Of a stretch of DNA of 37,403 nucleotides, positions 72 to 32,951 are shown piece by piece. Under the pieces are notes generated by a model, which did no database searches, was not told where the DNA came from, and saw only the letters and a list, made by a program, of their open reading frames with translations. The stretch is from assembly GCA_043749955.1 (NCBI GenBank), contig JAYVCM010000134.1, forward strand, positions 1-37,403, written 5' to 3'. The stretch's first letter is position 1; every line of letters starts with the position of its first letter. A program made the position numbers and the translations under genes. This DNA comes from Limisphaerales bacterium (GTDB lineage Bacteria; Verrucomicrobiota; Verrucomicrobiia; Limisphaerales; UBA11358).

Positions 72-118
72 AAGCCGGCGCTCCAGTTTTCCTGTGGCAC
101 TTGGCTTTTGGGGGGATT

Positions 119-3100
119 ATGATTTCTCCCATGCGCCGCCGAAATTTTTCATCATTGCTGCGTCATGGCTTTGCCGTTGGCCTCCCGGCCTGGCTCCTTT
201 TTTTCTCCGCCCCAAAATCCGCGGCCGCGCCGGTGGATTATCTGGTGGACAAGTGGGACACGGAAGACAACCTGCCGAGCAGCACGGTGACGTCCATCGC
301 GCAGACGCCGGACGGGTATCTGTGGGTGGGAACTTACAACGGGCTGGCGCGGTTTGACGGCGCACGGTTCGAGACGTTTGATCCGGTCAACCAGCCGGCG
401 CTGGGGCAGGCGCGGGTGCAGGCGCTGTTTCTCGACGCGAACGGCACGCTCTGGATCAACACGTTTCGCGGCGGGCTGACGTCGTATCGCCAGGGCGTGT
501 TCCGCAACGAATGGCCGAACCAGCCGGCGTTTGACCTGCACACCACGCTGGTGTCGTCGTCGTCCAACCAGATCACCTTTGTCACGCAGTTCGGCGAGGT
601 GCTGCGGCGCGACCTGGCCGCGACCAATGCCGGCTGGAACATTGCTGCGCCGCCGCCGGAGACGCGGCCGATTTTTCAATGTGCCGACGGCGCGGGGCGG
701 CTGTGGTTTCTGGCGCGCGACCGGCACATTTTACAATTCAGCGATGGCCGGTTCCAGGCGCTGGCGGACGACGGCGGCTTGGCGGGCAGCCGGATTTACA
801 CGCTGGTGGCGGATGCGGCGGGAAAAATCTGGGCGGGGGCGGAAAATGAAATTGCCGTTTGGGACGGCCGGCTGTTCCTCGCCATGACGCCGACGAACGG
901 CGCGACGGACATCCAGCCGCAGTCGCTTTTTCCGACGCGGGCCGGGGCGATGTGGGTGCTGGACGGCGAACGGCTGCGCAAAATGTCGGGCCGCGAATGG
1001 GTGGCCGAAGCCGCGCCGTGGCGCGGACTGCTGGGCGCGGCCTCGGGCCGCGCGATGGGCGCGCATGAGGATCGTGACGGCGGCTGGTGGTTTAATCATT
1101 ACGGCAACGGCTTGTTTCACATCACGCCGGAGGGACAGTTTCAGCGGCTGACCTCGCGGGAAAATCTGCCGAGCGACCGCGTGGGCGCGTGGTTCCAGAG
1201 CCGTGACGGGGGCGTCTGGGCGGGGGTGGACCACGGCGGGCTGGTGCGGCTGCACGACCGGCGGTTTCAAGTGATCGGCGTGAACGAGGGCCTGCCCGTG
1301 CGCACGGCGCTGTCCGTCTGTGAAGATGCGGAGGGTGTGATTTGGATCGGCACGGCGGGCGGCGGCCTGTGCCGCTGGACCAACGGCGTGGTCACGCGTT
1401 TCGCCGTCGGCCGGAGCGTGGCGGCGGATTTTGTTTTTGCCATTGCGCCCCGGCCGGGCGGCGGCGCGTGGTTGAGCGCGGCGGCGGGCGAGGACCTTTA
1501 CCAGTTTCAAAACGGCCAGGTGCGCCGCGCGTCGTGGGAGCTGCACGGCATCAAATCCATGCTGACCGACCGGCGCGGGCGCGTGTGGATGGGGACGAAG
1601 AACGGGATCGGTTTTTCCGACGGGAACGAGCGGCATATTTTGGGGACGAATGAAAGCGGCACGTTGCCGGCGGTGCGCGCGCTGGCGGAGGCGCCGGACG
1701 GAACGGTCTGGGCGGGCGCGGACAACGGCACGCTGTTCCGCTGCGAACCGGACAAGCTGACCGCGTTCCGGCCGGAGGACGCGCTGGCGGAGCAGCCGAT
1801 TTATTCGCTGACGGCGGATGCGGAGGGCGTGGTGTGGGCGGGGACGTTTCGCGGCGGGCTGCTGCGTTTCAAAAACGGGGAATTTTCGCGCATCACGGCC
1901 AGGCAGGGCTTGCCGGCGGATATCATCAGCCAGATTTTGGAAGACCGGCGCGGGCGGCTCTGGCTCGGCACACATCAGGGAATTTATTGCGTGGCCAAAG
2001 CCGCGCTGGACGCCATCGCCGATGGACGGGTCCCGCTCGGAGCGGGACTGGATTATGTGGCCTACGGGCGGCACGACGGTCTGCCCGCGCTGGAATGTTC
2101 CGACGGCTACCAGCCCGCGAGCTGGCGCGGCGCGAATGGAAAATTATGGTTCGCCACCGTCAGCGGCGTGGTGGCCATCAACCCGGAGGAAGCCACGGCC
2201 AAGTCGCCGCCGCCGCCGGTCATCATCGAGGAACTGCGCGTGGACGGCGAGGTCGTGAAGCTGCACGAGGAGGGAGGAGGGAAGATGGAAGATGGCCCGC
2301 GTCCGCGCACTTATCCAGCCTCCAGCCTCCACCCTCCATCCGCTCCCATCCGCATCCCGCCGGGACGCAAGCAGTTGGATTTTCGTTTCACCGCGTTGAG
2401 CTTTGACGCGGGCGACAAGGCGCGGTTCCGCTACCGGGTGGACGGGCTGGACACGGACTGGGTGGACGTGGACACGCGGCGGACGTTGCAACTGCGCAAC
2501 CTCGCGCCGCGCGAATACCGGCTGCGCGTCATCGCCTGCAACAGCGAAGGCGCGTGGAATCTGGACGGCGCGGCGCTGACGTTCGCGGTCCGCCCGTTTT
2601 TTTACCAGACGCTGGCGTTCCAGATCATCGCCGGGGTGTTGCTGGTGGCGGCGGTTTCCTTCGGCGTGCGCCGCGCGGCCACGCGGAAATACCGCCGCAA
2701 GCTGGCGCGGCTGGAACAGCAGCACGCCATCGAACGCGACCGCGCCCGCATCGCCAAGGACATCCACGACGACGTCGGCGCGGGCCTGACGCAGATCACG
2801 CTGCTCACCGAACTCGCGCGCCGCGAACCGGAGCAGACGGACGCGAACCTGGAGCGCATCTCCGATTCCGCGCGCACCCTGACCAAGGCGATGGATGAAA
2901 TCGTGTGGGCCGTGGATCCGCAGCACGACACGCTCGACGGCCTGGTGGATTACATCTCGGCCTATGCGGAAGATTTTTTGCGCGTGGCCGGCATCCGCTG
3001 CCGCATGGATTTCCCGATGAACCTGCCGACGACCCGCGTGGAGGCCGAGCTGCGCTACAATCTGTTTCTCGTCGTGAAGGAGGCGTTGAACAACATCGTC

Positions 3101-3460
3101 AAGCACGCGCGCGCGGATGAAGTCTGGCTGCGGCTGCACCTCGGCCCGAAATCTTTCACGCTCGCCATCGAGGACAACGGCTGCGGGCTGGGGGCGGACG
3201 ACGAGTTGCGAGCTGGTGAGTTGAGAGTTGAGGGTTCGGACGCTCAACTCTCAACTCACGGAACTCTCAACTCCAAAGCCGCCCGCCGCCTCAACTCCGG
3301 TTCGGGCCTGGAGAACATGAAGAAACGGCTGGCCGCCGTGGGTGGCCGCTGCGAGATCCACAGCGATGCGGGACGCGGCACGCGCGTGGAGATGACCGCC
3401 GCCCTCCGCCCTGGGGCATCGCCAGTTATGGCGATTGGCGGCAGTGAAACACCGGGGTAG
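119..3460 (+). CDS. Sensor histidine kinase with periplasmic two-component-regulator propeller repeats and Y_Y_Y domain, one TM, HisKA_3-type dimerisation domain and HATPase domain
   Basis: ORF 101..3460. First ATG is at 119, followed by a hydrophobic signal/TM segment. Repeated 'DG.LW.GT..GL' propeller motifs. TM segment FQIIAGVLLVAAVSF. H-box ERDRARIAKDIHDDVGAGLT. N-box VKEALNNIVKHA. G-boxes DNGCGL ... GSGLENMKKR. Start codon is uncertain (TTG 101, ATG 119 or ATG 131). Confidence 0.9.
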   Translation: MISPMRRRNFSSLLRHGFAVGLPAWLLFFSAPKSAAAPVDYLVDKWDTEDNLPSSTVTSIAQTPDGYLWVGTYNGLARFDGARFETFDPVNQPALGQARVQALFLDANGTLWINTFRGGLTSYRQGVFRNEWPNQPAFDLHTTLVSSSSNQITFVTQFGEVLRRDLAATNAGWNIAAPPPETRPIFQCADGAGRLWFLARDRHILQFSDGRFQALADDGGLAGSRIYTLVADAAGKIWAGAENEIAVWDGRLFLAMTPTNGATDIQPQSLFPTRAGAMWVLDGERLRKMSGREWVAEAAPWRGLLGAASGRAMGAHEDRDGGWWFNHYGNGLFHITPEGQFQRLTSRENLPSDRVGAWFQSRDGGVWAGVDHGGLVRLHDRRFQVIGVNEGLPVRTALSVCEDAEGVIWIGTAGGGLCRWTNGVVTRFAVGRSVAADFVFAIAPRPGGGAWLSAAAGEDLYQFQNGQVRRASWELHGIKSMLTDRRGRVWMGTKNGIGFSDGNERHILGTNESGTLPAVRALAEAPDGTVWAGADNGTLFRCEPDKLTAFRPEDALAEQPIYSLTADAEGVVWAGTFRGGLLRFKNGEFSRITARQGLPADIISQILEDRRGRLWLGTHQGIYCVAKAALDAIADGRVPLGAGLDYVAYGRHDGLPALECSDGYQPASWRGANGKLWFATVSGVVAINPEEATAKSPPPPVIIEELRVDGEVVKLHEEGGGKMEDGPRPRTYPASSLHPPSAPIRIPPGRKQLDFRFTALSFDAGDKARFRYRVDGLDTDWVDVDTRRTLQLRNLAPREYRLRVIACNSEGAWNLDGAALTFAVRPFFYQTLAFQIIAGVLLVAAVSFGVRRAATRKYRRKLARLEQQHAIERDRARIAKDIHDDVGAGLTQITLLTELARREPEQTDANLERISDSARTLTKAMDEIVWAVDPQHDTLDGLVDYISAYAEDFLRVAGIRCRMDFPMNLPTTRVEAELRYNLFLVVKEALNNIVKHARADEVWLRLHLGPKSFTLAIEDNGCGLGADDELRAGELRVEGSDAQLSTHGTLNSKAARRLNSGSGLENMKKRLAAVGGRCEIHSDAGRGTRVEMTAALRPGASPVMAIGGSETPG
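3216..3259. repeat. Heptamer-arm hairpin (AGTTGAG/CTCAACT family), copy inside the kinase CDS
   Basis: Perfect 17-bp arms GTGAGTTGAGAGTTGAG (3216..3232) and CTCAACTCTCAACTCAC (3243..3259) around the loop GGTTCGGACG. Further CTCAACT-like units extend to about 3299. Translated in frame as GELRVEGSDAQLSTHGTLNS. Confidence 0.9.
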
Positions 3461-11360: not shown

Positions 11361-13145
11361 ATGAAAAATAAAATTACACGCCTCGGCGTCTTCACCGCGC
11401 TCGCCATTTTTTTGTCCGCGCCGCCGCTTCACGCCGCGGTGGACACCTGGTCCGCCTCGCCCGGCACTTGGGACGTGGGCGTGACGACGAATTGGAACGG
11501 CGGCGCATCCGTGTTCAACAACGGCGACAGCGCCATCTTCAGCAACCTCGGCGCGGCCGGTGCCGGCGCGAGCGTGGTGACGATTGTTGGCACGGTGCAG
11601 CCGGCGGCCACCACCGTCTCCGCGACGGCTGCCAACGTGAACTATACCTTCAGCGGTTCCGGCGTCATCGGCGGCACAGGCGCGTTGCTCAAGACCGGCG
11701 CGAGCACGCTGACCATCAACACCACGAACAGTTACAGCGGCGGCACAACCATCGGCGGCGGCATCGTGCTCGTGACCAACACGGCGGTCGGCCAGTTCGG
11801 CACCGGCAGTATCACGCTCACCAACGGCGGCGCGCTCACACTTTATCGCGCCACGACCACGGACGACGGCAGCACCATCGGCACACTGACCAACGCCTTG
11901 ATTGTCCCGACCGGCCAGACGGGAATCATTTCCAATTCGCCGCGCGGAAACATCAGCGGATCGCTGACCGGCGGCGGCACGTTGAATTTCCGCGCCAACG
12001 CCTCGCGCGGCGACATCAGCGGCAACTGGTCGGCCTTCACTGGGCAGATCAATTTGACGGGCGTCACCGGCGGCAATTTCCGCTGCTTGAACGCCGCCGG
12101 CTACCCGCTGGTGAAAATGAATCTCGCCAACGGCAGCGCGCTGGGCAACCGCGTGGCGGGCGCGCCGGTGATTCCGATTGGCGAACTTTCCGGCGACTTC
12201 AACTCCAGCCTCATCGCGCCGAACACGGGCAACGAAAGTTTGAGCGTCATCTGGCGCGTCGGCGGTCTGAACACCTCGGCGACGTTCAACGGAAATATCA
12301 CCGGCGCGACCGGCCTCATCAAGGAAGGCGGCGGCACTTGGACGCTGGGCGGCACGAACATCACGTTCACAAACACGACGACGGTGAGCGCCGGCACGTT
12401 GACGTTGACCAATACCAGTTCCGCAACCTTGACGAACAGTTCGGTCATCACTGTCAATGCCGGGGCGACCTTGAACCTGGCTGGCCCGGTAAAGGAATTA
12501 AATATCGTCAGCAACCAGACGTTGAAAGGCGGCGGCGTCATCGGTATCGCGTCCGTGACCGTGACCACCGGCGGCACGCTTTCGCCCGGTGATGGTGTGG
12601 GCACGCTGACATTGTCCAACAACACTGTCAGTTCCAGCGGCACCATTCTCATGGAACTCAACCGCACCAATTCGGGGGCGACGAACGATCAGCTTGCTGC
12701 CATCACCATCACCATCAACGGTGGTAAACTTATCGTCACCAACCTCGGCCCGGATTTGCGAGCGGGGGATAGTTTCAAATTATTCAGTGTGGCGATTGGT
12801 GGAAGTGGTTTCACCACTGTGAATTTGCCGACCAATGCCGCGAGCGGCGTCAGTTACACTTGGACGAACAAGCTGACGTTGGATGGAACCATTCAAGTCC
12901 TCACTGCCACCGGCGGCGTGAACACCAACGCGACCAGCCTCACCAGCGTGGTGACGGGAACACAGCTCATCCTGTCCTGGCCCGCCGATCACATTGGCTG
13001 GCGTTTGCAGGCGCAGACGAATTTCCTGTCCACCGGCCTTTACACCAACTGGGTGACGATCCCCGGCACGGAAACGGGCAATCATTACACGAACACGCTC
13101 AACCCCGCCAACGGCTCGGTGTTCTACCGCATGGTTTATCCGTAA
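11361..13145 (+). CDS. Secreted autotransporter-associated beta-strand-repeat protein, short paralog (594 aa) of the upstream giant protein
   Basis: ATG at 11361 gives MKNKITRLGVFTALAIFLSAPPLHA, a signal peptide. The N-terminal module (YSGGTTIGGG...QFGTGSITLTNGG...LTNALIVPTGQTG...GGGTLNFRANASRGDISGNWSAFTGQINL) and the C-terminal module (SWPADHIGWRLQAQTN...NWVTIPGTETGNHYTNTLNPANGSVFYRMVYP) both match the 2252-aa protein. Confidence 0.9.
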   Translation: MKNKITRLGVFTALAIFLSAPPLHAAVDTWSASPGTWDVGVTTNWNGGASVFNNGDSAIFSNLGAAGAGASVVTIVGTVQPAATTVSATAANVNYTFSGSGVIGGTGALLKTGASTLTINTTNSYSGGTTIGGGIVLVTNTAVGQFGTGSITLTNGGALTLYRATTTDDGSTIGTLTNALIVPTGQTGIISNSPRGNISGSLTGGGTLNFRANASRGDISGNWSAFTGQINLTGVTGGNFRCLNAAGYPLVKMNLANGSALGNRVAGAPVIPIGELSGDFNSSLIAPNTGNESLSVIWRVGGLNTSATFNGNITGATGLIKEGGGTWTLGGTNITFTNTTTVSAGTLTLTNTSSATLTNSSVITVNAGATLNLAGPVKELNIVSNQTLKGGGVIGIASVTVTTGGTLSPGDGVGTLTLSNNTVSSSGTILMELNRTNSGATNDQLAAITITINGGKLIVTNLGPDLRAGDSFKLFSVAIGGSGFTTVNLPTNAASGVSYTWTNKLTLDGTIQVLTATGGVNTNATSLTSVVTGTQLILSWPADHIGWRLQAQTNFLSTGLYTNWVTIPGTETGNHYTNTLNPANGSVFYRMVYP

Positions 13146-13203: not shown

Positions 13204-13266
13204 CGACCACGGTGGATGATTGGGGATTGATACCATTTCCCAATGACAAACGGCAGCTTGGCGGCT

Positions 13267-13343
13267 GGTAGGGCGGCGCTGCCGCGCCGCTTCCCCGCAA
13301 CAACGGTGATTCACGTCAGCGTCGCGGCAGCGACGCCCTACCA
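13267..13343. repeat. REP doublet (REPIN-like): two inverted copies of the GTAGGGCGxCGCTGCCGCGxCGC palindrome
   Basis: GGTAGGGCGGCGCTGCCGCGCCGC at 13267..13290 and its inverted variant GCGTCGCGGCAGCGACGCCCTACC at 13320..13343. The same unit flanks the RAYT gene at 32018..32951. Confidence 0.8.
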
Positions 13344-14958: not shown

Positions 14959-15034
14959 TGGTGGATTGGCGGGGACTCGAACCCCGGACCAATGCCTTAA
15001 AAGGGCACTGCTCTACCAACTGAGCTACCAATCC
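14959..15034 (-). tRNA. tRNA-Lys (anticodon UUU), CCA encoded
   Basis: Reverse complement folds as GGATTGG-TA-GCTC-AGTTGGTA-GAGC-A-GTGCC-CTTTTAA-GGCAT-TGGTC-CGGGG-TTCGAGT-CCCCG-CCAATCC-A-CCA. It has a 7-bp acceptor stem, GTTCGAGT T-loop and 76 nt total. Confidence 0.93.
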
Positions 15035-18444: not shown

Positions 18445-18453
18445 AAAAAAACT

Positions 18454-18546
18454 GGATGGGTGGATGAATGGATAAGTGGATGGTTGGATGGAGGAGCGTC
18501 CGCGCGCGAAACCCATTTATCCAACAATCCAACAATCCACAAATCC
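18454..18546. repeat. Tandem-arm hairpin (NNNTGGAT units / ATCCANNN units) between prmC and murA
   Basis: Left arm GGATGGGTGGATGAATGGATAAGTGGATGGTTGGATGG (18454..18491). Spacer of about 21 nt. Right arm CCATTTATCCAACAATCCAACAATCCACAAATCC (18513..18546). Arms are imperfectly complementary. Confidence 0.7.
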
Positions 18547-18549
18547 TGA

Positions 18550-19470
18550 TTATTTGCCGCTCGTTCGCGCGATTATGATTCTGGCGCGGTGAGAGTAGTC
18601 CTCCCGCACGGCTTCGACAACCCACTTTTCACTTTCAAAGATTTTTTTTATGGCGTCCGCCTGGCCGTCGCCGAATTCCACCATGATTTTTCCGTCCGGC
18701 TTGAGGAATGTTTTGGCCTCCGCCGCGAGCTTTCGGTAAAAATCCAGACCGTCCGCCCCGCCATCCAGCGCCAGCCGCGGGTCAAAGTCTCGGACTTCGG
18801 GATCCAGCGTGGCGATCTCGGCGGAGGGAATGTAGGGCGGGTTGCTGACGATCAAATCAAAGCGTAGTGGCACAGGCATCTTGCCTGTGAGTTCATTCTT
18901 TGAAACACACAGGCTAGAAGCCTGTGCCACTACCGGCAACGCCGCAAAACCATCGCCGGCTAAAAATTCAATTCTCTCCCCGACGTTGTTTCGCTCGGCG
19001 TTTTCTTTCGCCAGCGCCAGGGCTTCCGTGGAAATGTCCGTGGCAAAAATCTTTGCCTGCGGACATTTCGCCGCGATGGCAATGGCGATGCAGCCGCTGC
19101 CGGTGCAGAAGTCCAGGCAAGTTGAGAGTTGAGAGTTGAGAGTGGAGAGAAACTGCCAGCCAAGCTCCGCAAGCAATTCTGTTTCTGGACGCGGAACAAG
19201 CACTTGGCGGCTCACAGCAATTTCAAATCCGCAAAACGAGGTGGAGCCAATGATGTGCTGGAGCGGTTCGCGCAGGCCGCGCCGCTTGACGAGTTCACGC
19301 AGCCCGTCCGTTTCCGCCGCCGTCAGCGCGCGGTCGAAGTTCAGATACAATTTCATGCGCGGCATCTTGAGCAGGTGCGCAAGGAGCAGCTCCGTTTGGA
19401 GGCGCGGCGACTCGACATTTTTCTTGCCGAGAAAATCGGTGCTTTTCTGAATCGCTTCGAGGACGGTCAT
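18550..19470 (-). CDS. prmC: Release-factor glutamine N5-methyltransferase (HemK/PrmC), carrying two in-frame repeat insertions
   Basis: MTVLEAIQKSTDFLGKKNVESPRLQTELLLAHLL... is the HemK N-domain. SAM motif LDFCTGSGCIAIAIA. NPPY motif DLIVSNPPYIPS. The ATG at 19470 overlaps the stop of the upstream ORF6N gene (ATGA). The 110-aa upstream extension in the track is not credible. Confidence 0.92.
   Translation of the reverse strand: MTVLEAIQKSTDFLGKKNVESPRLQTELLLAHLLKMPRMKLYLNFDRALTAAETDGLRELVKRRGLREPLQHIIGSTSFCGFEIAVSRQVLVPRPETELLAELGWQFLSTLNSQLSTCLDFCTGSGCIAIAIAAKCPQAKIFATDISTEALALAKENAERNNVGERIEFLAGDGFAALPVVAQASSLCVSKNELTGKMPVPLRFDLIVSNPPYIPSAEIATLDPEVRDFDPRLALDGGADGLDFYRKLAAEAKTFLKPDGKIMVEFGDGQADAIKKIFESEKWVVEAVREDYSHRARIIIARTSGK
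18864..18933. repeat. Family G palindromic element (GTAGTGGCACAGGC ... GCCTGTGCCACTAC) inside prmC
   Basis: 70-nt element with 13-nt terminal inverted repeats and two internal hairpins (CACAGGC-N5-GCCTGTG). Second copy at 33771..33855 in fabD. Translated as VVAQASSLCVSKNELTGKMPVPL. Confidence 0.85.
19120..19147. repeat. Solo arm of the AGTTGAG/CTCAACT heptamer family inside prmC
   Basis: AGTTGAG x3 plus AGTGGAG in tandem on the + strand. No complementary arm nearby. Read on the coding (minus) strand as LSTLNSQLST. Confidence 0.8.
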
Positions 19471-21037: not shown

Positions 21038-21122
21038 GGATTTACGATATACGATATGCGATTTACGCGCCGCTCGAAAAATTCAGGTGGACTCGTATAT
21101 CGCAAATCGCAAATCGTAAATA
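21038..21122. repeat. Tandem-arm hairpin (ATTTACGAT/ATACGAT units) in the divergent promoter region
   Basis: Left arm GGATTTACGATATACGATATGCGATTTACG (21038..21067). 26-nt spacer. Right arm CGTATATCGCAAATCGCAAATCGTAAATA (21094..21122). By hand alignment 24 of 28 positions pair. Confidence 0.7.
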
Positions 21123-26706: not shown

Positions 26707-26763
26707 TTGCTGATCGCCGTCCCGTCATCTGGCACGCCGCGTGCAGAGACAATTTTTGAAACC

Positions 26764-28872
26764 ATGAAACGCTTCCGCAACCTCCCGATCCAGCAGAAAA
26801 TGCTGGTGATGACCCTGCTCATCTGCGGTGCGGTCCTCCTGGTCGCCATCGTGGCGCTCTTCGTTTTCCAGGTTCTGAACTTCCGCTCCAATTTCCAGCG
26901 CGACACCTCCACGCTGGCGGACATCATCGCCAACCAAAGCAACGCCGCGATGTCGTTTAAGGATGTCGAGACCGCGACCGAGGTGTTGGGATCCCTGCAG
27001 GCCAAACCCACGGTGTTGTCCGCAGCACTCGTTTTACGCGACGGATCGGTTTTCGCCCACTACGGAATCCAGGAGCAACCCGACGCGCTGGCAAAATTTC
27101 CGCGGCCGGGTGAATACCGTTTCACCGGCGGCCATCTGCTGTTCACGCAGCTGGTCATAGTGAAAAAGGAGCAGGTGGGCACGCTTTACCTGCGGACGGA
27201 TTATCAGCGGACGTTTCTGGAACTGCTCGGTTTCTACGGACAGGTCATCTTGGGCGTCACGGTGGTGTCCATCGCCCTGGCGGTGTTTCTTTCCGGGCGG
27301 TTGGGGCGCACGATTACGGAACCGGTGCTCCAACTGGCGCAGGTCGCCAAAATTGTCGGTGAAAAAAAAGACTACTCGGTGCGGGCGGTCGTGAGCAACC
27401 GGGGCGACGAACTGGGCCGGCTCGCGGAATCGTTCAATGAGATGCTGGGCCGCATCGAAAGCCAGGACGCCGCGTTGAGTTTGTCGCAGCAGAAAATGGA
27501 GGCGTTGATCCACTCGATTGACGGCATCGTCTGGGAACGCACGCCGGACACGTTCGAGTTCACTTTTATCAGCCGCCAGAGTGCCATGATGCTGGGTTTT
27601 TCGCCGCAGGCGTGGCTGGACCGGCCGAAATTCTGGGAGGAAAAACTGCATCCGCAGGACGCCGCCAAGGCGATTCAGACGGGTCACGAGATGGCGATGC
27701 GGGGTGAGCCGTATAGTTATGAATACCGGATGCTCGCCGCCGATGGCCGGACGGTCTGGATCCGGGAGAGCGGCATGGTGCTGGTGGAGAAAGGCCGGCC
27801 CGTGGCCATGCGCGGCATTTTCCTGGACATCACGCAGCAAAAATTGGCCGCCGAACAATTGGACAAGCTCAACCGGCAGTTGATTGACACCTCCCGAAAC
27901 GCCGGCATGGCCGACGTGGCCACGGGCGTGCTGCACAATGTCGGCAATGTGCTCAACAGCGTAAGCGTCTCCGCCACGGTGGTGGGCGACCGGTTGCGCC
28001 GCTCCAAGGTCACCAATTTGCGCCGCGCCACGGCCATGATGCGTGAGAAAAACGGCCACCTCGCCGAATTCTTGACGAACGATCCCAAGGGCAAACTGCT
28101 GCCGGATTATTTCAGCACGGTGGCGGAGCAACTGGCCGCCGAGCAGACGGAGTTGATCACGGAAATGGATTCGGTCGGCCAGCACATCGAGCACATCAAG
28201 GAGATTGTGGCGATGCAGCAGAACTACGCCAAGGTTTCCGGCGTCTATGAGAATCTGGCGCCGCAGGAGCTGGTGGAAGATGCGTTGCGCATGAATGTGG
28301 CGGCGTTCGAGCGGCATCGCATCGAGCTGGTGCTGGAGTTCGCCGAGAACCTGCCCAAGGTCTGCGTGGACCGGCACAAGTTTTTGCAGATCCTCATCAA
28401 CCTCCTCCGCAACGCCAAGCATGCCATGGAGGATGGGTGCGAGGAAGACCGGCGCATGGTCATCCGGGTGGGCCTGGCGTCGCCTGGCCGGGTGAAGATT
28501 GTCGTCAGCGACAATGGCCTGGGAATTCCGGCGGAGAATCTCAACAAGGTTTTCAACCACGGTTTCACGACCAAGAAAGACGGGCACGGCTTCGGGCTGC
28601 ACAGCGGGGCCAATGCCGCCAAGGAAATGGGCGGCAGCCTTACGGCCCACAGCGACGGCCCCGGCAAGGGCGCGGAATTCACGCTGGAACTGCCGACGAG
28701 CCAGTTGAGAGGTGGTGAGTTGAGAGTTGCGCAGCCAGTTGAGAGTTCGGACTCTCAACTATCAACTCACAAAACTATCAACTCATCGGAACCCTCCAGC
28801 TCTCAACTCTCAACTCATAAACCTCTCAACTCGCAGACAACCCTCAACTCACCCAGCTCTCAACTCTTATGA
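26764..28872 (+). CDS. Sensor histidine kinase (CHASE8-like periplasmic domain, HAMP, PAS, kinase core) with a repeat-encoded C-terminal tail
   Basis: ATG at 26764 gives MKRFRNLPIQQKMLVMTLLICGAVLLVAIVALF. HAMP segment ITEPVLQLAQVAKIV...ELGRLAESFNEML. PAS segment IDGIVWER...YEYRMLAADGRTVWI. H-box VATGVLHNVGNVLNS. HATPase segment NLLRNAKHAM...DNGLGIP...GHGFGLH. The last 55 aa or so are encoded by the CTCAACT repeat. Confidence 0.9.
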   Translation: MKRFRNLPIQQKMLVMTLLICGAVLLVAIVALFVFQVLNFRSNFQRDTSTLADIIANQSNAAMSFKDVETATEVLGSLQAKPTVLSAALVLRDGSVFAHYGIQEQPDALAKFPRPGEYRFTGGHLLFTQLVIVKKEQVGTLYLRTDYQRTFLELLGFYGQVILGVTVVSIALAVFLSGRLGRTITEPVLQLAQVAKIVGEKKDYSVRAVVSNRGDELGRLAESFNEMLGRIESQDAALSLSQQKMEALIHSIDGIVWERTPDTFEFTFISRQSAMMLGFSPQAWLDRPKFWEEKLHPQDAAKAIQTGHEMAMRGEPYSYEYRMLAADGRTVWIRESGMVLVEKGRPVAMRGIFLDITQQKLAAEQLDKLNRQLIDTSRNAGMADVATGVLHNVGNVLNSVSVSATVVGDRLRRSKVTNLRRATAMMREKNGHLAEFLTNDPKGKLLPDYFSTVAEQLAAEQTELITEMDSVGQHIEHIKEIVAMQQNYAKVSGVYENLAPQELVEDALRMNVAAFERHRIELVLEFAENLPKVCVDRHKFLQILINLLRNAKHAMEDGCEEDRRMVIRVGLASPGRVKIVVSDNGLGIPAENLNKVFNHGFTTKKDGHGFGLHSGANAAKEMGGSLTAHSDGPGKGAEFTLELPTSQLRGGELRVAQPVESSDSQLSTHKTINSSEPSSSQLSTHKPLNSQTTLNSPSSQLL
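28703..28867. repeat. Expanded AGTTGAG/CTCAACT heptamer-arm element at the kinase / hybrid-kinase junction
   Basis: Core hairpin AGTTGAGAG-TTCGGA-CTCTCAACT at 28737..28760. About 4 AGTTGAG units to the left and about 8 (C/A)TCAACT units to the right. Runs up to the ATGA start/stop overlap at 28869..28872. Confidence 0.85.
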
Positions 28873-30923
28873 CGCCCAACCATCGCATCCTGCTCGTGGA
28901 CGACAACACGAGTATCCACGCCGATTTCCGAAAAATCCTGTGCCCGGACATTTCCGGCTCGGCCGTCATCAATGAGATGGAGGCGGCCTTGTTCGAGGAC
29001 ACCAAGCCGGCGGCGGCGCATACCAGTTTCGAGCTGGACTCGGCGTTTCAAGGGCAGGAGGCGCTGGAGATGGTCAAGCTGTCGCTCGCCGAAAACCGGC
29101 CTTACGCGATGGCCTTCGTGGATGTGCGGATGCCGCCGGGCTGGGACGGCATCGAAACCATTGCCCGCATCTGGGAAGTTTATCCGGAAATCCAGATTGT
29201 CATCTGCACGGCCTACTCGGATTACTCCTGGGAAGACATGCGCAACAAAGTCGGCCAGCCCGACGGCCTGCTCGTCCTCAAGAAACCATTCGACAACATC
29301 GAAGTGCAGCAGATCGCCCACGCGCTGACAAAAAAATGGCTGCTGAATCATCAGTCGGCGCTGCAGATCGCGGATCTGGCGCGGGCGAATGAAAAGCTGG
29401 CGTTGTCGGAGGAGCGGTTCTCCAAGGCGTTTCATGAAAGCCCGCTGCCCAGCGGCATCCAGAGTTTTCCCGACCAACGTTTCGTGGACGTGAACCAGCG
29501 CTTCGCCGAGGTGGCCGGTTACAAACGCGAGGAGATGCTCGGCCGCACGGCGGCGGATTTGTTCCTGTGGGAAAAACCGGCCGCCGCCGATTTGTGGTAT
29601 GAACGCCTGTTGCTGAACGAACTGGTGCGGGATCAGGAGGCGAAGATTCGTCACCAGGCCGGTGACTTGCGGGAGCTGCTGGTCTCGCTGTCGCCCATCG
29701 CGTTGGGCGGCTCGCCCCACATGCTGCTGCTGGCCCAGGACGTCTCGGAGCGCGCGCTGTTGGAGCGGCAGTTGCGGCAGGCGCAGAAGATGGAAGCCAT
29801 TGGCCAGCTGGCCGCCGGTGTGGCGCATGATTTTAACAACATCCTCACGGTGATCCAAGGTCACGCGGGTTTGCTGCAACAGACGCTCAACATCGCCGAC
29901 CCGCAGACCCGGTCCTTGGATCAGATTTCCAAGGCGTCCAACCGCGCCGCCGCGCTCATCCGCCAGTTGCTCATGTTCAGCCGCAAGCAGGTCATGCAGT
30001 TTCGGCACTTGGACATGAATGACACTCTGCGCAACGCGATCAAGATGCTGGAACGTCTCGTGGGCGAACATGTGCAGATTGAATTTCACCCCTCGGCAGC
30101 TTTGCCCGCGGTGCATGCGGACTTGAGCATGATTGAACAAATCGCCATGAATCTGGCGGTCAACGCCCGCGATGCCATGCCCAGTGGCGGACGGATCACG
30201 ATCTCGACCACGCGGGAGTCGGTGCACCGCGCGCCCACGCCGATGGATCCCGAACCCCGCGACGGCGATTACATCTGCCTGACGTTCAGCGACACCGGCA
30301 CCGGCATGGACACGCAGGTGCTCGGCCGGATCTTTGAACCCTTTTTCACCACCAAGCCGGTCGGCAAGGGCACGGGTCTCGGGTTGTCCACCGTGTTCGG
30401 CATCGTGCGCCAGCACGAGGGCTGGCTGGAAGTGGAGAGCAAACCGAATCTGGGCACGACGTTTCGCGCCTATTTTCCCGCGAGCCAGCAGGCGGCGGAA
30501 AAAATCGAGCTGGTGATTGATTCCACTTTGAGCAAGGGCCGGGAAACGGTGCTCGTGGCGGAAGATGAAGAACCGTTGCGCCAGATGGTGGTGCAGGTGC
30601 TCCGCATCCAGGGCTACACCGTGCTGGAGGCCGTGTCCGGCGCGGATGCGCTCGAGGTGTGGGAACGCGCCAACCGGCCGGTGGACTTGCTGCTGACCGA
30701 CATGGTGATGCCCGGCGGCATCATGGGCAGCGAACTGGCGGAACGGCTCTCGAACCAGTGCCCGCACCTGAAGGTGATTTATACCAGCGGCTACAGCCCC
30801 GGCATGGCGGGCCGCGACGCGTCGCTGCTGGAAGGCCGCAACTTCCTGCCCAAGCCCTACTCGATCGGCAAACTCGCGCAGTTCGTCCGCGAATGTCTCG
30901 ACGTGCCGGTGAAGCAAAACTGA
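28869..30923 (+). CDS. Hybrid sensor histidine kinase / response regulator (REC-PAS-HisKA-HATPase-REC)
   Basis: N-terminal REC ILLVDDN...FVDVRMP. PAS region. H-box AIGQLAAGVAHDFNNIL. HATPase NLAVNARDAM...DTGTGMD...GKGTGLGLS. C-terminal REC VLVAEDEEP...LLLTDMVMPG. Confidence 0.92.
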   Translation: MTPNHRILLVDDNTSIHADFRKILCPDISGSAVINEMEAALFEDTKPAAAHTSFELDSAFQGQEALEMVKLSLAENRPYAMAFVDVRMPPGWDGIETIARIWEVYPEIQIVICTAYSDYSWEDMRNKVGQPDGLLVLKKPFDNIEVQQIAHALTKKWLLNHQSALQIADLARANEKLALSEERFSKAFHESPLPSGIQSFPDQRFVDVNQRFAEVAGYKREEMLGRTAADLFLWEKPAAADLWYERLLLNELVRDQEAKIRHQAGDLRELLVSLSPIALGGSPHMLLLAQDVSERALLERQLRQAQKMEAIGQLAAGVAHDFNNILTVIQGHAGLLQQTLNIADPQTRSLDQISKASNRAAALIRQLLMFSRKQVMQFRHLDMNDTLRNAIKMLERLVGEHVQIEFHPSAALPAVHADLSMIEQIAMNLAVNARDAMPSGGRITISTTRESVHRAPTPMDPEPRDGDYICLTFSDTGTGMDTQVLGRIFEPFFTTKPVGKGTGLGLSTVFGIVRQHEGWLEVESKPNLGTTFRAYFPASQQAAEKIELVIDSTLSKGRETVLVAEDEEPLRQMVVQVLRIQGYTVLEAVSGADALEVWERANRPVDLLLTDMVMPGGIMGSELAERLSNQCPHLKVIYTSGYSPGMAGRDASLLEGRNFLPKPYSIGKLAQFVRECLDVPVKQN

Positions 30924-30929
30924 CGGACC

Positions 30930-30998
30930 GTTGAGAGTTTTATGAGTTGAGAGTTGAGGGTTCGGACTCTCAACTCTCAACTCAAATAACTCTCAACT
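30930..30998. repeat. Heptamer-arm hairpin (AGTTGAG/CTCAACT family) between convergent genes; plausible bidirectional terminator or RNA-stability element
   Basis: Perfect 15-bp arms GAGTTGAGAGTTGAG (30944..30958) and CTCAACTCTCAACTC (30969..30983) around GGTTCGGACT, plus partial units on both flanks. Confidence 0.85.
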
Positions 30999-31928
30999 GG
31001 CTCTGGCTTTCAGCCGCGCGGATGAAATTTCCGGTGGATCTCCCGCAGCCGGCTGCCCGTGACGTGCGTGTAAATCTCCGTCGTGCCGATGCTCGCATGG
31101 CCGAGCAGTTCCTGGATCGCGCAAGTCCGCGCCGTGCTCCAGCAGATGCGTGGCAAAACTGTGCCGCAACATGTGCGGCGTGATGTTGCGCCCGATGCCT
31201 GTGCGGCGGACGCGGTTCTTGATGTGCAGCCAGAGCGTCACCGCCGCGAACGGCGTTCCGCGCTTCGTCAAAAAAACATTCGCCGGAGATTTCGGCGTGA
31301 CGAGTTTCGGACGGCCGGTCTCGATGTAACGGTTCAACGCCGCGACCGCTTTTTTTCCCACCGGCACCACGCGCTCTTTGTTGCCCTTGCCGATGACGTT
31401 GATGAAGCCCGCGTCCAGATGCAACTGCTCCAGCCGGATGTTTTTCAGCTCGGACAATCGCAGGCCCGAGGCGTAGGCCAGTTCCAGAATCGCCTGGTCG
31501 CATAAATTTTCCCTGGTCTCCGGCAATTCCGGCGCGAGCAGTTTTTTTATTTCGTCGTTCGACAGCGCCTTGGGCAGACGTTTCCAGCGGCGCGGCAGCG
31601 AAAGATTTTCCGCGAGGTTCGCCGGCAGCAGTTTTTCGTTCTCGGCGAATTTGTAGAACGACCGCAGCGCGGCGATTTCCAGATACACGCTTTCGCCGCT
31701 CAAGCGCAGGGTGGATCCCCTGGGTGCGTCGGCGGGCGGGCGGGCGCGCTCGTGTTGCAGGAACGCCATGAGATGTTTTAGCTCGACCGATTTCCAGTCC
31801 GTGAGAGTTTGCGTCGCCGCCCACGCGGTGAATTTGCCGAGCAGAGCGGCGTAGGTCCTGGCCGTGTTGTCCGCCTGCCCGCGCTCGTGGCGCAGGCATT
31901 GCAGAAAATCTTCCACGAGGTTTTGCAT
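30993..31928 (-). CDS. xerD: XerD/XerC-family tyrosine recombinase, apparently frameshifted before the catalytic His/Tyr block (possible pseudogene)
   Basis: ATG at 31928 gives [30 protein letters not shown], the N-terminal SAM-like domain. ...[21 protein letters not shown] then loses the frame. The family sequence [35 protein letters not shown] continues in another frame and ends at 31010. Confidence 0.8.
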
Positions 31929-32017
31929 CACGGCAGTCCGGCGGCGGGCAAATTTTTTGTGGTGGCAGCCATGCGGCAATGTTGGCAGCGCGCCGGACGG
32001 ATGAGAATAAAAATCAT

Positions 32018-32202
32018 GGTAGGGCGGCGCTGCCGCGCCGCCCAAATTTCCCCGCCAGAACAAGCGCAGCGATGTTCTGGCCTGCGGGATTGACGCGCGC
32101 TGGTTCCGTCCAGCCACGCTGCGCGGGCTGACGGGGGAGAAATGGGCAGAGCGGCAGCTCTGCCCTGCCAAAATTGGTAGGGCGGCGCTGCCGCGCCGCC
32201 CC
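32018..32202. repeat. REP cluster (BIME-like) downstream of the RAYT gene
   Basis: Palindromes GGGCGGCGC-TGCC-GCGCCGCCC (32021..32043 and 32179..32201) and GGGCAGAGC-GGCA-GCTCTGCCC (32144..32165). Confidence 0.85.
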
Positions 32203-32206
32203 AATT

Positions 32207-32686
32207 TCAATCCGCCGACCAACGGATTTCATGCACGCGTCCGAAATAAGGCCAGTCCTCCGGTCGCTCCGCCAGCTTGTGCCGGACGGGATTGTCCCGG
32301 ACGTATTGCCGTTTCTGCGCGTAACTTTCGCCATCCCGCAGGCGATGATGAAAACCGCCGTCTTGAAAAATTCCCGTGTCCGGCTGCGACTTGGCCAGGC
32401 GGTCTTTCCAAAAGGCGATCCCGCGTTCGATGGTGAATTTCCAATCCCGCGGCGCGCAGAACAGATGCAGATGATCGGGCAGCAGCAGATAATCACTGAC
32501 CAGCCAGGCGGTGGCCTTGTGTTCCCAAATCTCATGCAGCGCCCGCTGGACGGATGCCTGCGCCAGCCAGCGGTCCCGTTTCGCGGTGCAGACGGTGAGA
32601 AAAACCCAGTTCGGACCGCCGGCGGAAACGTGAACGCCCTTCGCCGGCGTGTGTCGTCCCGGTTCGTGGAAAGGGATTTCGGACAT
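32207..32686 (-). CDS. REP-associated tyrosine transposase (RAYT; IS200/IS605 TnpA-like Y1 HUH enzyme)
   Basis: HUH motif LLLPDHLHLFCAP. C-terminal catalytic Tyr context RQYVRDNPVRHKLAERPEDWPY. 159 aa. Flanked on both sides by REP palindromes. Confidence 0.85.
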   Translation of the reverse strand: MSEIPFHEPGRHTPAKGVHVSAGGPNWVFLTVCTAKRDRWLAQASVQRALHEIWEHKATAWLVSDYLLLPDHLHLFCAPRDWKFTIERGIAFWKDRLAKSQPDTGIFQDGGFHHRLRDGESYAQKRQYVRDNPVRHKLAERPEDWPYFGRVHEIRWSAD

Positions 32687-32762
32687 GGCGAAATTTTTAG
32701 CGGAAGGCGGACGAAGGGAAAAGTTTTTTCGTCACGCGTTCAAAGCGCGTGACGGGAGAAAT

Positions 32763-32951
32763 GGGCGGAGCGGCAGCTCTGCCCTACCAAATGTTGGTGG
32801 TAGGGCGGCGCTGCCGCGCCGCCCAAACTTTCCCGCCGGAACCAGCGCAGCGAAGTTCCGGCCTTCGGGTTTGACGCGGACTGATTCCGTCAGCATCGCT
32901 TCGCTGGCTGACGGGGGAGAATGGGGCAGAGCGGCAGCTCTGCCCTGCCAA
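32763..32951. repeat. REP cluster (BIME-like) upstream of the RAYT gene
   Basis: GGGCGGAGCGGCAGCTCTGCCCT (32763..32785), GGTAGGGCGGCGCTGCCGCGCCGCCC (32799..32824) and GGGCAGAGCGGCAGCTCTGCCC (32925..32946). Confidence 0.85.

Follow-up and report, generated by a model that had tools for sequence, protein, structure and literature searches.

A dispersed hairpin repeat with inverted AGTTGAG/CTCAACT arrays and a freely varying apex lies at bacterial gene ends

Sequences of the REP and REPIN type are short, dispersed, imperfect palindromes that lie at gene ends, may overlap the 3′ ends of open reading frames (ORFs), occur in bursts in particular genomes without target duplication and stabilize the upstream mRNA. 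Rickettsia palindromic elements (RPE), which are 100–150 bp long, have unique sequences without tandem units and are restricted to Rickettsia, sit in frame in protein genes and are translated as extra surface peptides. Tandem heptanucleotide repeats are a separate group, among them the STRR repeats of cyanobacteria, reportedly described by Mazel in 1990 and by Vioque in 1997, with units such as CCCCAGT. Long heptanucleotide simple-sequence repeats were the subject of Mrazek 2007, as summarized in PMC4679880. The heptamer TAACTGA occurs as direct repeats in Beggiatoaceae, Cyanobacteria and Bacteroidetes, a few nucleotides upstream of starts with few ribosome-binding sites; this single heptamer is found in distant phyla with no known transfer mechanism, and only one inverted set has been reported (MacGregor 2015, PMC4679880). 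Here we describe a dispersed repeat of ~70 nt in a 37,403-nucleotide stretch of contig JAYVCM010000134.1 from a Limisphaerales bacterium (the window), whose homolog names (Limisphaerales, Pedosphaera) put the host in Verrucomicrobiota. The repeat consists of two inverted AGTTGAG/CTCAACT arrays around a freely varying apex. It lies at gene ends, where it supplies or abuts stop codons, and, where it is read in frame, it adds a short peptide to a variable loop or as a C-terminal tail.

The most complete view of the element comes from copy C, at 30930–30998, which on direct reading of the window sequence is an imperfect palindrome of 69 bases in the order GTTGAGAGTT-TTAT-GAGTTGAGAGTTGAG-GGTTCGGACT-CTCAACTCTCAACTC-AAAT-AACTCTCAACT:

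30930–30939: outer unit, 5′ side, GTTGAGAGTT
30940–30943: spacer, 5′ side, TTAT
30944–30958: inner 5′ arm, GAGTTGAGAGTTGAG
30959–30968: apex, GGTTCGGACT
30969–30983: inner 3′ arm, CTCAACTCTCAACTC
30984–30987: spacer, 3′ side, AAAT
30988–30998: outer unit, 3′ side, AACTCTCAACT

As an inverted repeat, copy C has arms of 32 nt with 91% complementarity, and its predicted fold reaches −48.6 kcal/mol on the plus strand (z −10 vs shuffles) and −46.1 kcal/mol on the minus strand (z −11). It occupies the gap between the stop of a hybrid-kinase gene (TGA, 30921–30923) and the stop of a convergent gene for a XerD-like recombinase (30993..32222, minus strand; Pfam Phage_integrase and SAM_1). The last codon and the TGA of the XerD-like gene (30993–30995, minus strand) fall within the outermost AGTTGAG unit, so copy C, which the first-pass annotation had called intergenic, does lie between convergent genes but is not strictly intergenic. 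The same annotation had taken it for a bidirectional terminator. This description holds only loosely, for a hairpin shared by two 3′ ends, but no T run (U-tract) follows copy C on either strand, and a terminator consensus scan of 28500–31500 did not call the hairpin.

The related heptamer copies in the window are the following:

3203..3273, plus strand: copy A, with apex GGTTCGGACG at 3233–3242 and the architecture of copy C, from sequence and translation
28702..28868, plus strand: cluster B, a composite of heptamer units in the C-terminal tail of a CHASE8/HAMP/PAS kinase (26707..28872)
19120–19147, minus strand: prmC run, three CTCAACT units and one CTCCACT on the coding strand, encoding STLNSQLST

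The three hairpin copies follow one plan of ~70 nt, in which an outer unit, a 4-nt spacer and two inner units lead to n-GTTCGGAC-n and are then repeated in mirror image. This common interrupted-arm plan and the core they share mark the three hairpins as copies of one ~70-nt element. Their apices are GGTTCGGACG at 3233–3242, GTTCGGAC at 28745–28752 and GGTTCGGACT at 30959–30968; the middle one had been read as TTCGGA at 28746, which places the apex correctly but is short of the full 8-mer. On either strand, the window hairpins fold at −45 to −49 kcal/mol with z of −7 to −11. Exact CTCAACT/AGTTGAG heptamers number 25 in the window against 2.2 expected from shuffles, and the 14-mer with up to two mismatches is present 13 times against an expectation of 0.08. 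The exact heptamers group in four clusters (3219–3296, 19120–19140, 28703–28865 and 30945–30998), and Tandem Repeats Finder reports a period of 7 at 3218, 3243, 19120, 28703, 28751, 30930 and 30966. The repeat is present at four sites in 37 kb, and two of its three hairpins are translated. Enrichment, folding and the three copies of one plan bear out the proposal that the heptamer-arm hairpins form a real family.

Direct reading also upholds the frame logic put forward earlier. Tandem AGTTGAG units run into TGA in all frames within three units, whereas the CTCAACT strand is open in all frames, and genic copies are tolerated only in the TGA-free frame: the kinases at 101..3460 and 26707..28872 both translate their copies in the sole frame that lacks TGA. 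Copy A lies in frame in the ATP-lid loop of a Reg_prop/HisKA_3 histidine kinase (101..3460; Pfam domains), where it encodes ELRAGELRVEGSDAQLSTHGTLNS and contributes ~24 extra residues. Homologs at 64–76% identity lack ~20–24 residues between DNGxG and RLxSGSGL, and a DNA alignment with two orthologs (L122 and L123) reveals a ~53-nt block at copy A in the window only. Several close homologs of this kinase, these two among them, are called truncated or frame-shifted on long ‘np1212’ contigs, probably as a result of uncorrected nanopore indels and not of biology.

Cluster B contains a nested mini-hairpin, AGTTGAG-A-GTTCGGAC-T-CTCAACT, at 28737–28760, as well as extra half elements of CTCAACT type. 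It fills ~170 nt in place of the ~55 nt found in relatives of ~80% identity, and the tail kinase is 702–703 aa long here compared with 649–661 aa in their orthologs. The last CTCAACT unit stops 3 nt short of the hybrid-kinase ATG (28869), and this leader stands in place of the Shine–Dalgarno-like (SD-like) AAGGGAAAAC that precedes the ATG in the relatives. Despite cluster B, the ATGA stop/start overlap of the tail kinase and the hybrid kinase is retained. The prmC run, which directly precedes motif I (LDFCTGSG), had been counted as a further genic copy. Its CTCAACT units are indeed on the coding strand and specify the peptide STLNSQLST, but it has no inverted partner and is a tandem run only, not a hairpin. 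Orthologs of prmC at 76–85% identity have an equal-length stretch, ST[LI]NxQxST, so the peptide is either old or a conserved linker.

A comparison with close relatives shows where the element changes. In a strain whose flanking kinase is 98% identical (L117/L118), copy C has the same apex and a 7-nt indel in the outer 5′ arm, and the kinase-tail copy has the apex AGTGGAGAGTCCGCACT. In the same strain, cluster B differs from that of the window by indels of 10 and 7 nt and by a C-to-A change that two units have in common, with identical flanks. Relatives at ~80% identity have no element at either kinase site and no AGTTGAG run in 60 kb. In one of these relatives (L121), the spacer that follows the orthologous hybrid-kinase gene contains the tandem array TTCGGAC-TTCGGAC-TTCGGAT-TTCGGAT at 12606–12633, which indicates that the ‘loop’ of the window is itself a heptamer repeat unit in this lineage.

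To separate loop from arms, we scanned 185,579 species-representative genomes with the arms only (AGTTGAGAGTTGAG, 3–25 nt, CTCAACTCTCAACT) and obtained 111 loci, spread over 52 genomes of ten or more phyla. The carriers belong to Chloroflexota, Acidobacteriota, Verrucomicrobiota, Planctomycetota, Bacteroidota, Gemmatimonadota, Bacillota, Armatimonadota and Vulcanimicrobiota and include a ‘Deltaproteobacteria’ metagenome-assembled genome (MAG); among the 52 there are no Gammaproteobacteria, Alphaproteobacteria, Actinomycetota or Cyanobacteria. The loops of the 111 hairpins are 6–25 nt long and unrelated, and the loop GGTTCGGAC is present in none of these same-arm hairpins of the 52 other genomes. 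Other Verrucomicrobia MAGs keep the same interrupted-arm plan with unrelated loops, and JGI metagenome contigs contain no match to the 22-base core with the loop in it. By these comparisons, the arms are the conserved feature, and the loop is young and private to the species. This is the reverse of the first-pass proposal, in which a conserved loop pointed to a protein or RNA partner; that argument finds no support in a loop that is identical within the species only.

Since the core arms are fixed by the search pattern, outer-arm pairing was measured directly. Over the outer 21 nt of the arms, 52.5% of positions are Watson–Crick paired, compared with 25–29% after a slide of 1–3 nt, and 212 outer-arm positions are altered on both sides with pairing kept. 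There are 12 exactly complementary variant third units (for example, AGTTAAG/CTTAACT), whereas permutations yield 4.0. The hairpins are unevenly spread: Anaerolineae AQU-02 has at least 25 loci, Bacteroides sp. 519 at least 13 and Pyrinomonadaceae SMAG_U3511 at least 7, and most genomes related to these rich carriers have no copies. The copies in Bacteroides sp. 519 have loop and flanks in common, whereas in AQU-02 the loops vary and the arms are constant.

Several individual loci have features of their own. In Bacteroides sp. 519, a loop ACGATGCCGCATGG with an internal ATGC-C-GCAT palindrome occurs within AGTTGAG arms or within nTGAGTn arms depending on the site (L031 5684–5749, L074 4734–4782 and others), and many copies have longer flanks in common, GCAAATGCAGTTCATTTGT ... 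AGAGCATCAGCAGCAGTTTC. This pattern points either to a composite repeat of larger size or to a small element that is nested within the heptamer hairpins. In four Chthoniobacterales/Verrucomicrobia MAGs (L008, L023, L043 and L068; L043 4259–4302), an AGTTGAG hairpin with near-identical flanks lies in the gap between a BsuPI-like and a PHP-domain gene, which indicates that the hairpin has been kept at an orthologous site across species. Another AGTTGAG hairpin (L078 6936–6988) is found in a 16S–23S rRNA spacer, 9 nt from a tRNA gene, and would be part of the rRNA precursor.

The hairpins lie at gene boundaries. With gene contexts taken from ORF heuristics and not from annotation, 88% of hairpins mark the end of a frame of 100 codons or more, compared with 34% of random positions. 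The commonest context is a pair of co-directional genes, not convergent ones: the upstream frame stops within or just before the 5′ arm, and the next ATG follows 0–12 nt past the last 3′-arm unit. The genes that start after hairpins have genuine-looking N termini (for example, an E2 lipoyl protein, a permease and RecQ), and the spacers between hairpin and ATG are short and A-rich, with GGAGG mostly absent. Of 172 oriented sides, 36 (~42% of hairpins) have a stop within 60 nt upstream and a start no more than 40 nt downstream, compared with 12 of 1720 random ones. Of 53 oriented hairpins, 44 have no T run longer than 3 within 35 nt. We also considered that the hairpins might interrupt genes. 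In-silico removal of the hairpin gives a spanning frame in 52% of cases against 38% for random positions; on inspection, these were adjacent co-directional genes with their own starts. Translational bypassing was dropped on the same grounds, the flanking frames being separate co-directional genes with their own start codons.

The AGTTGAG hairpins are members of a broader class. Both the window and the fetched loci contain many further hairpins whose arms are tandem units of other sequence, mostly of period 7, and once ascertainment is removed, such hairpins are about as frequent in carrier genomes as AGTTGAG hairpins. Among 25 independent other-unit hairpins, G outnumbers C in the 5′ arm of 22 and C outnumbers G in none (p 5e-7), and C makes up only 7.4% of the 5′ arm. 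These 5′ arms hold AGT in 16 cases and ACT in 1, and stops are confined to the 5′ arm in 13 hairpins and to the 3′ arm in 4. Perfect ordinary inverted repeats from the same loci have no such polarity (29 vs 22). The reversed arrangement, (CTCAACT)2-loop-(AGTTGAG)2, is found in 6 stretches of the JGI metagenomes, a count that has no forward baseline in that collection. The class, which is apparently new to the literature, has a strict polarity: its 5′ arm is rich in G and T and bears stops, and its 3′ arm is poor in G and free of stops. Of 2344 cyclic heptamer classes, only 152 lack C, carry a stop and have a complement without stops. As the allowed set is this small, the presence of one unit in distant phyla could reflect convergence and not transfer.

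Further repeats in the window that bear on this class are:

21039..21121, no strand assigned: ATTTACG-type hairpin, arms ATTTACG/ATATACG vs CGTATAT/CGCAAAT, loop of 25 nt
18453..18546, no strand assigned: period-8 hairpin, five TGGATnnn vs three ATCCAnnA
2267..2340, plus strand: heptamer arrays, two GAGGAGG and two GAAGATG vs two TCCAGCC, TCCACCC and TCCATCC
3290..3307, plus strand: G2-box segment, CTCAACTCCGGTTCGGGC, native sequence encoding the conserved LNSGSG of kinase 101..3460

Cluster B, the ATTTACG hairpin and the period-8 hairpin between prmC and murA match the stop-to-start pattern. The ATTTACG hairpin has a predicted fold of −37.9 kcal/mol (z −5.1), and on the minus strand its 3′ arm lies 2 nt from the GTG start (21037) of a histone-deacetylase-like gene. 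The period-8 hairpin spans the entire 105-nt gap from the prmC stop (18550) to the murA-like start (18444) on the minus strand, where it is followed by U7 and then directly by AUG. Its fold is no better than that of shuffles (z −1.25), and it could be an intrinsic terminator or an attenuator set right on the start codon. The arrays at 2267–2340 are in frame within kinase 101..3460 and are partially complementary. The segment CTCAACTCCGGTTCGGGC at 3290–3307 reads like a 3′-arm unit with the apex motif after it. The corresponding ortholog sequence is CTCAGCTCCGGCTCCGGC or CTCAGTTCCGGGTCCGGA, and the window’s three differences, one of which changes Ser to Asn, are all toward the repeat. This likeness may stem from gene conversion by the adjacent element, from the segment having been the source of the apex, or from chance.

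Palindromes with a GTAG tag are present in the window as well. A double palindrome at 18864–18933, GTAGTGGCACAGGCATCTTGCCTGT vs ACAGGCTAGAAGCCTGTGCCACTAC, lies in frame within the minus-strand prmC and encodes a variable insert, ...SKNELTGKMPVPLR, that some orthologs (P0079 and P0021) lack; it looks like a REPIN-type element translated within an essential methyltransferase. A second GTAG-tagged family, TGGTAGGGCGGCGCTGCCGCGCCGC..., is found at 13266–13343 and 32762–32825. The genome therefore has classical REP-like repeats beside its heptamer hairpins. A tRNA gene at 14962–15034 on the minus strand (74.5 bits) is the sole Rfam match in the window.

No match to the heptamer hairpin was found among Rfam families or in the literature searched. 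At gathering thresholds, Rfam returned only tRNA and rRNA for the window and 35 loci, and at relaxed thresholds only sub-threshold models of miRNA-precursor hairpins for 28600–31100. Neither 14-mer was found in the literature searched, where, for heptanucleotide or palindromic repeats, only the work on REP, STRR and TAACTGA proved relevant. A match to a known element, which the first-pass annotation had named as grounds for withdrawing its claim, was thus found neither in Rfam nor in that literature. Viral contigs, plasmids and phages gave no match either, to which, for plasmids and phages, the low-complexity filter of BLAST may contribute.

The element resembles REP and REPIN sequences in its form, its position at gene ends, its overlap with ORF 3′ ends, its bursts in particular genomes and its lack of target duplication, and it presumably also resembles them in stabilizing the upstream mRNA. 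It differs from them in that it has no GTAG or CGTC tag (its arms start with (A)GTTGAG, and no GTAG lies beside any of the three copies), in that its arms are tandem heptamers whereas REP has a unique stem, and in that different phyla share its arm sequence, unlike the lineage-specific sequences of REP. Pfam searches of selected ORFs found no gene for a RAYT (Y1 transposase) in the 37-kb window. With STRR and long simple-sequence repeats it shares dispersed, mostly intergenic tandem units of 7 nt, the commonest unit length of those repeats, and many unit types per genome; head-to-tail 7-nt units are present at many dispersed loci here. Its arrays differ from theirs in forming inverted pairs with a strict polarity of G-rich 5′ and G-poor 3′ arms, and in unit and phyla. 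STRR proper are repeats of heterocystous cyanobacteria, whereas the host here is one of the Verrucomicrobiota and none of the 52 carriers is cyanobacterial. The TAACTGA repeats are similar in that a specific, stop-bearing heptamer recurs across distant phyla near starts, and their reverse complement, TCAGTTA, holds AGTT as AGTTGAG does; their unit is another one, and the hairpin is the rule for the AGTTGAG element. Like RPE, the hairpin includes palindromic in-frame insertions that are translated, but unlike them it is built of tandem units.

Taken together, these comparisons lead us to favor, at about even probability, a REP/STRR-like dispersed palindromic repeat that changes by 7-nt indels and would serve as a gene-end or intercistronic hairpin. 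In the transcript, it would form a REP-like hairpin at the gene end or between cistrons, distinct from a canonical intrinsic terminator. A ribosome entering it would meet translational stops in three frames, and the hairpin would act as a barrier to 3′ exonucleases or to read-through, as REP hairpins do. The arrays may originate and be reshaped by heptamer slippage plus templated correction from arm to arm, with some further mechanism copying the element to new sites, and the identical loop of the three window copies would then reflect recent common descent, not a binding partner. Several points weigh against this account. No flanking direct repeats, and so no target-site duplication, were found at the window copies or the listed loci, and no candidate mobilizing enzyme was found near any copy, a genome-wide search not being possible. 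The hairpins have no U-tract. Comparisons of sense with antisense stability and of G–U with A–C mismatches gave no support for selection at the RNA level, and in 35 of 53 oriented hairpins the more stable fold is that of the antisense strand, the orientation calls being crude; the gene contexts, too, rest on heuristics. Slippage alone fails to explain one 70-nt plan at three unlinked sites. Nor is it fast everywhere, given that contigs at 98–99.97% identity have no indel at four other window repeats, the prmC AGTTGAG run included. The same contigs rule out a contingency locus of hypervariable copy number for these four repeats.

The need for a copying mechanism brings up a non-autonomous mobile element of the REPIN or MITE type, which we regard as possible though rather improbable. 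Here an enzyme acting in trans (for example, a Y1/HUH transposase) would recognize the hairpin in single-stranded DNA, and horizontal transfer of that enzyme would lie behind the bursts in scattered phyla. Such an origin would account for the concentration of copies in AQU-02, Bacteroides sp. 519 and SMAG_U3511 while most of their relatives have none, for the common loop and flanks in Bacteroides sp. 519, for the single architecture of the three window copies and for the empty sites in ~80%-identity relatives. The absence of target duplications fits Y1-type transposition, and the window genome does carry GTAG-tagged REP/REPIN families. However, no enzyme gene lies near any copy (genome-wide, no search was possible), no direct repeats of the MITE kind flank the window copies or the listed loci, and no partner insertion sequence is known. 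Variable loops on constant arms, as in AQU-02, are unusual for copies of a master element, the equal frequency of other-unit hairpins once ascertainment is removed favors a generic process, and there are no matches in viral contigs, plasmids or phages. A dedicated mobilizing enzyme is possible but unsupported. A specific partner that recognizes the apex GGTTCGGAC, with the arms merely presenting it, is very improbable. The 8-mer is identical and in one orientation in all three window hairpins, and strain L117 has the same apex at the intergenic copy; yet three copies facing one way have a chance probability of 0.25, the loop occurs in 0 of 111 same-arm hairpins, the core is without match in JGI metagenome contigs, the kinase-tail apex differs in the 98% strain, and TTCGGAC is a repeat unit elsewhere. 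A recombination site, either one used by the XerD-like tyrosine recombinase next to copy C or one resembling integron attC, was rejected on motif order and lack of association, and we consider its probability negligible. Its inverted arms do surround an asymmetric centre of 9–10 bp, the recombinase gene ends within the element, and the units hold GTTRRR/YYYAAC-like motifs. The order, however, is opposite to that of attC (RYYYAAC ... GTTRRRY), with GTTGAG 5′ and CTCAAC 3′, on both strands, and there is no cassette array of the kind found next to intI. Other copies are in kinase genes, no repeat of this type lies within 22 kb of the homologous recombinase in L120, and loops elsewhere reach 25 nt.

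What the hairpin does at the junction raises two further alternatives. A canonical bidirectional Rho-independent terminator would suit a stem-loop just past stop codons that, in copy C, lies between two convergent ones and is very stable on both strands. We consider it improbable, because such a terminator has a G+C-rich stem, a loop of 3–8 nt and at least 5 T within 8 nt, whereas here the stem is ~30 bp, far longer than typical and A/T-rich, no T run follows on either strand (44 of 53 oriented hairpins have runs of 3 or fewer), the consensus scan makes no call, and the hairpin is often traversed by ribosomes, as in two of three window copies, or placed directly before a start. An orientation-independent intercistronic cassette, which as a palindrome would give the same RNA from either strand, is in our view unlikely. 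An upstream ribosome would stop in any frame within the 5′ arm and melt it, freeing a G-less, unstructured leader before the next start and so coupling translation or insulating the ribosome-binding site in bacteria of low Shine–Dalgarno usage. The 3′ arm 0–12 nt from the ATG of genuine-looking N termini, the ~42% of hairpins that fill a stop-to-start junction, the short, A-rich spacers mostly without GGAGG, the replacement of the SD-like AAGGGAAAAC by a CTCAACT leader 3 nt from the ATG, and the strict polarity (22 vs 0 of 25 hairpins) that ordinary inverted repeats lack all agree with it, and TAACTGA repeats too lie just upstream of starts with few ribosome-binding sites (PMC4679880). On the other hand, copy C lies between convergent genes with no start codon near, hairpins of reversed polarity exist (6 stretches), the link to Shine–Dalgarno usage is conjectural, and a neutral element restricted to the short spacers of compact operons gives the same anatomy. 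A neutral element whose survival is limited to very short spacers would also agree with both anatomy and polarity. In its broadest form, which we likewise hold to be doubtful, the idea would make the hairpin a cross-phylum, orientation-independent punctuation mark that ends the upstream frame, folds and hands an open leader to the next start, and that spreads as a mobile or self-propagating unit where Shine–Dalgarno signals are weak. The unit length, which is not a multiple of three, is what lets the 5′ arm stop all frames while the G-less 3′ arm stays open in all. If true, such a mark would also explain the cyanobacterial STRR and the TAACTGA repeats.

For the dispersed palindromic repeat that we favor, some consequences are immediate. 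In annotation, the element extends, truncates or interrupts predicted proteins and adds low-complexity peptides of the LNSQLST type. The AGTTGAG/CTCAACT unit is present in cultured strains, namely Bacteroides cellulosilyticus DSM 14838, Bacteroides sp. 519 and 224, a Chitinophagaceae isolate and a Planctomycetales isolate, so reporter and RNA-end experiments are feasible. Bacterial tandem heptanucleotide repeats, whether STRR, long simple-sequence or TAACTGA, have been known for decades with no accepted account of their function or origin. The heptamer hairpin offers a defined, inverted form of such repeats with testable rules: conserved arms and free loops, polarity, stops on the entering side and flush placement.

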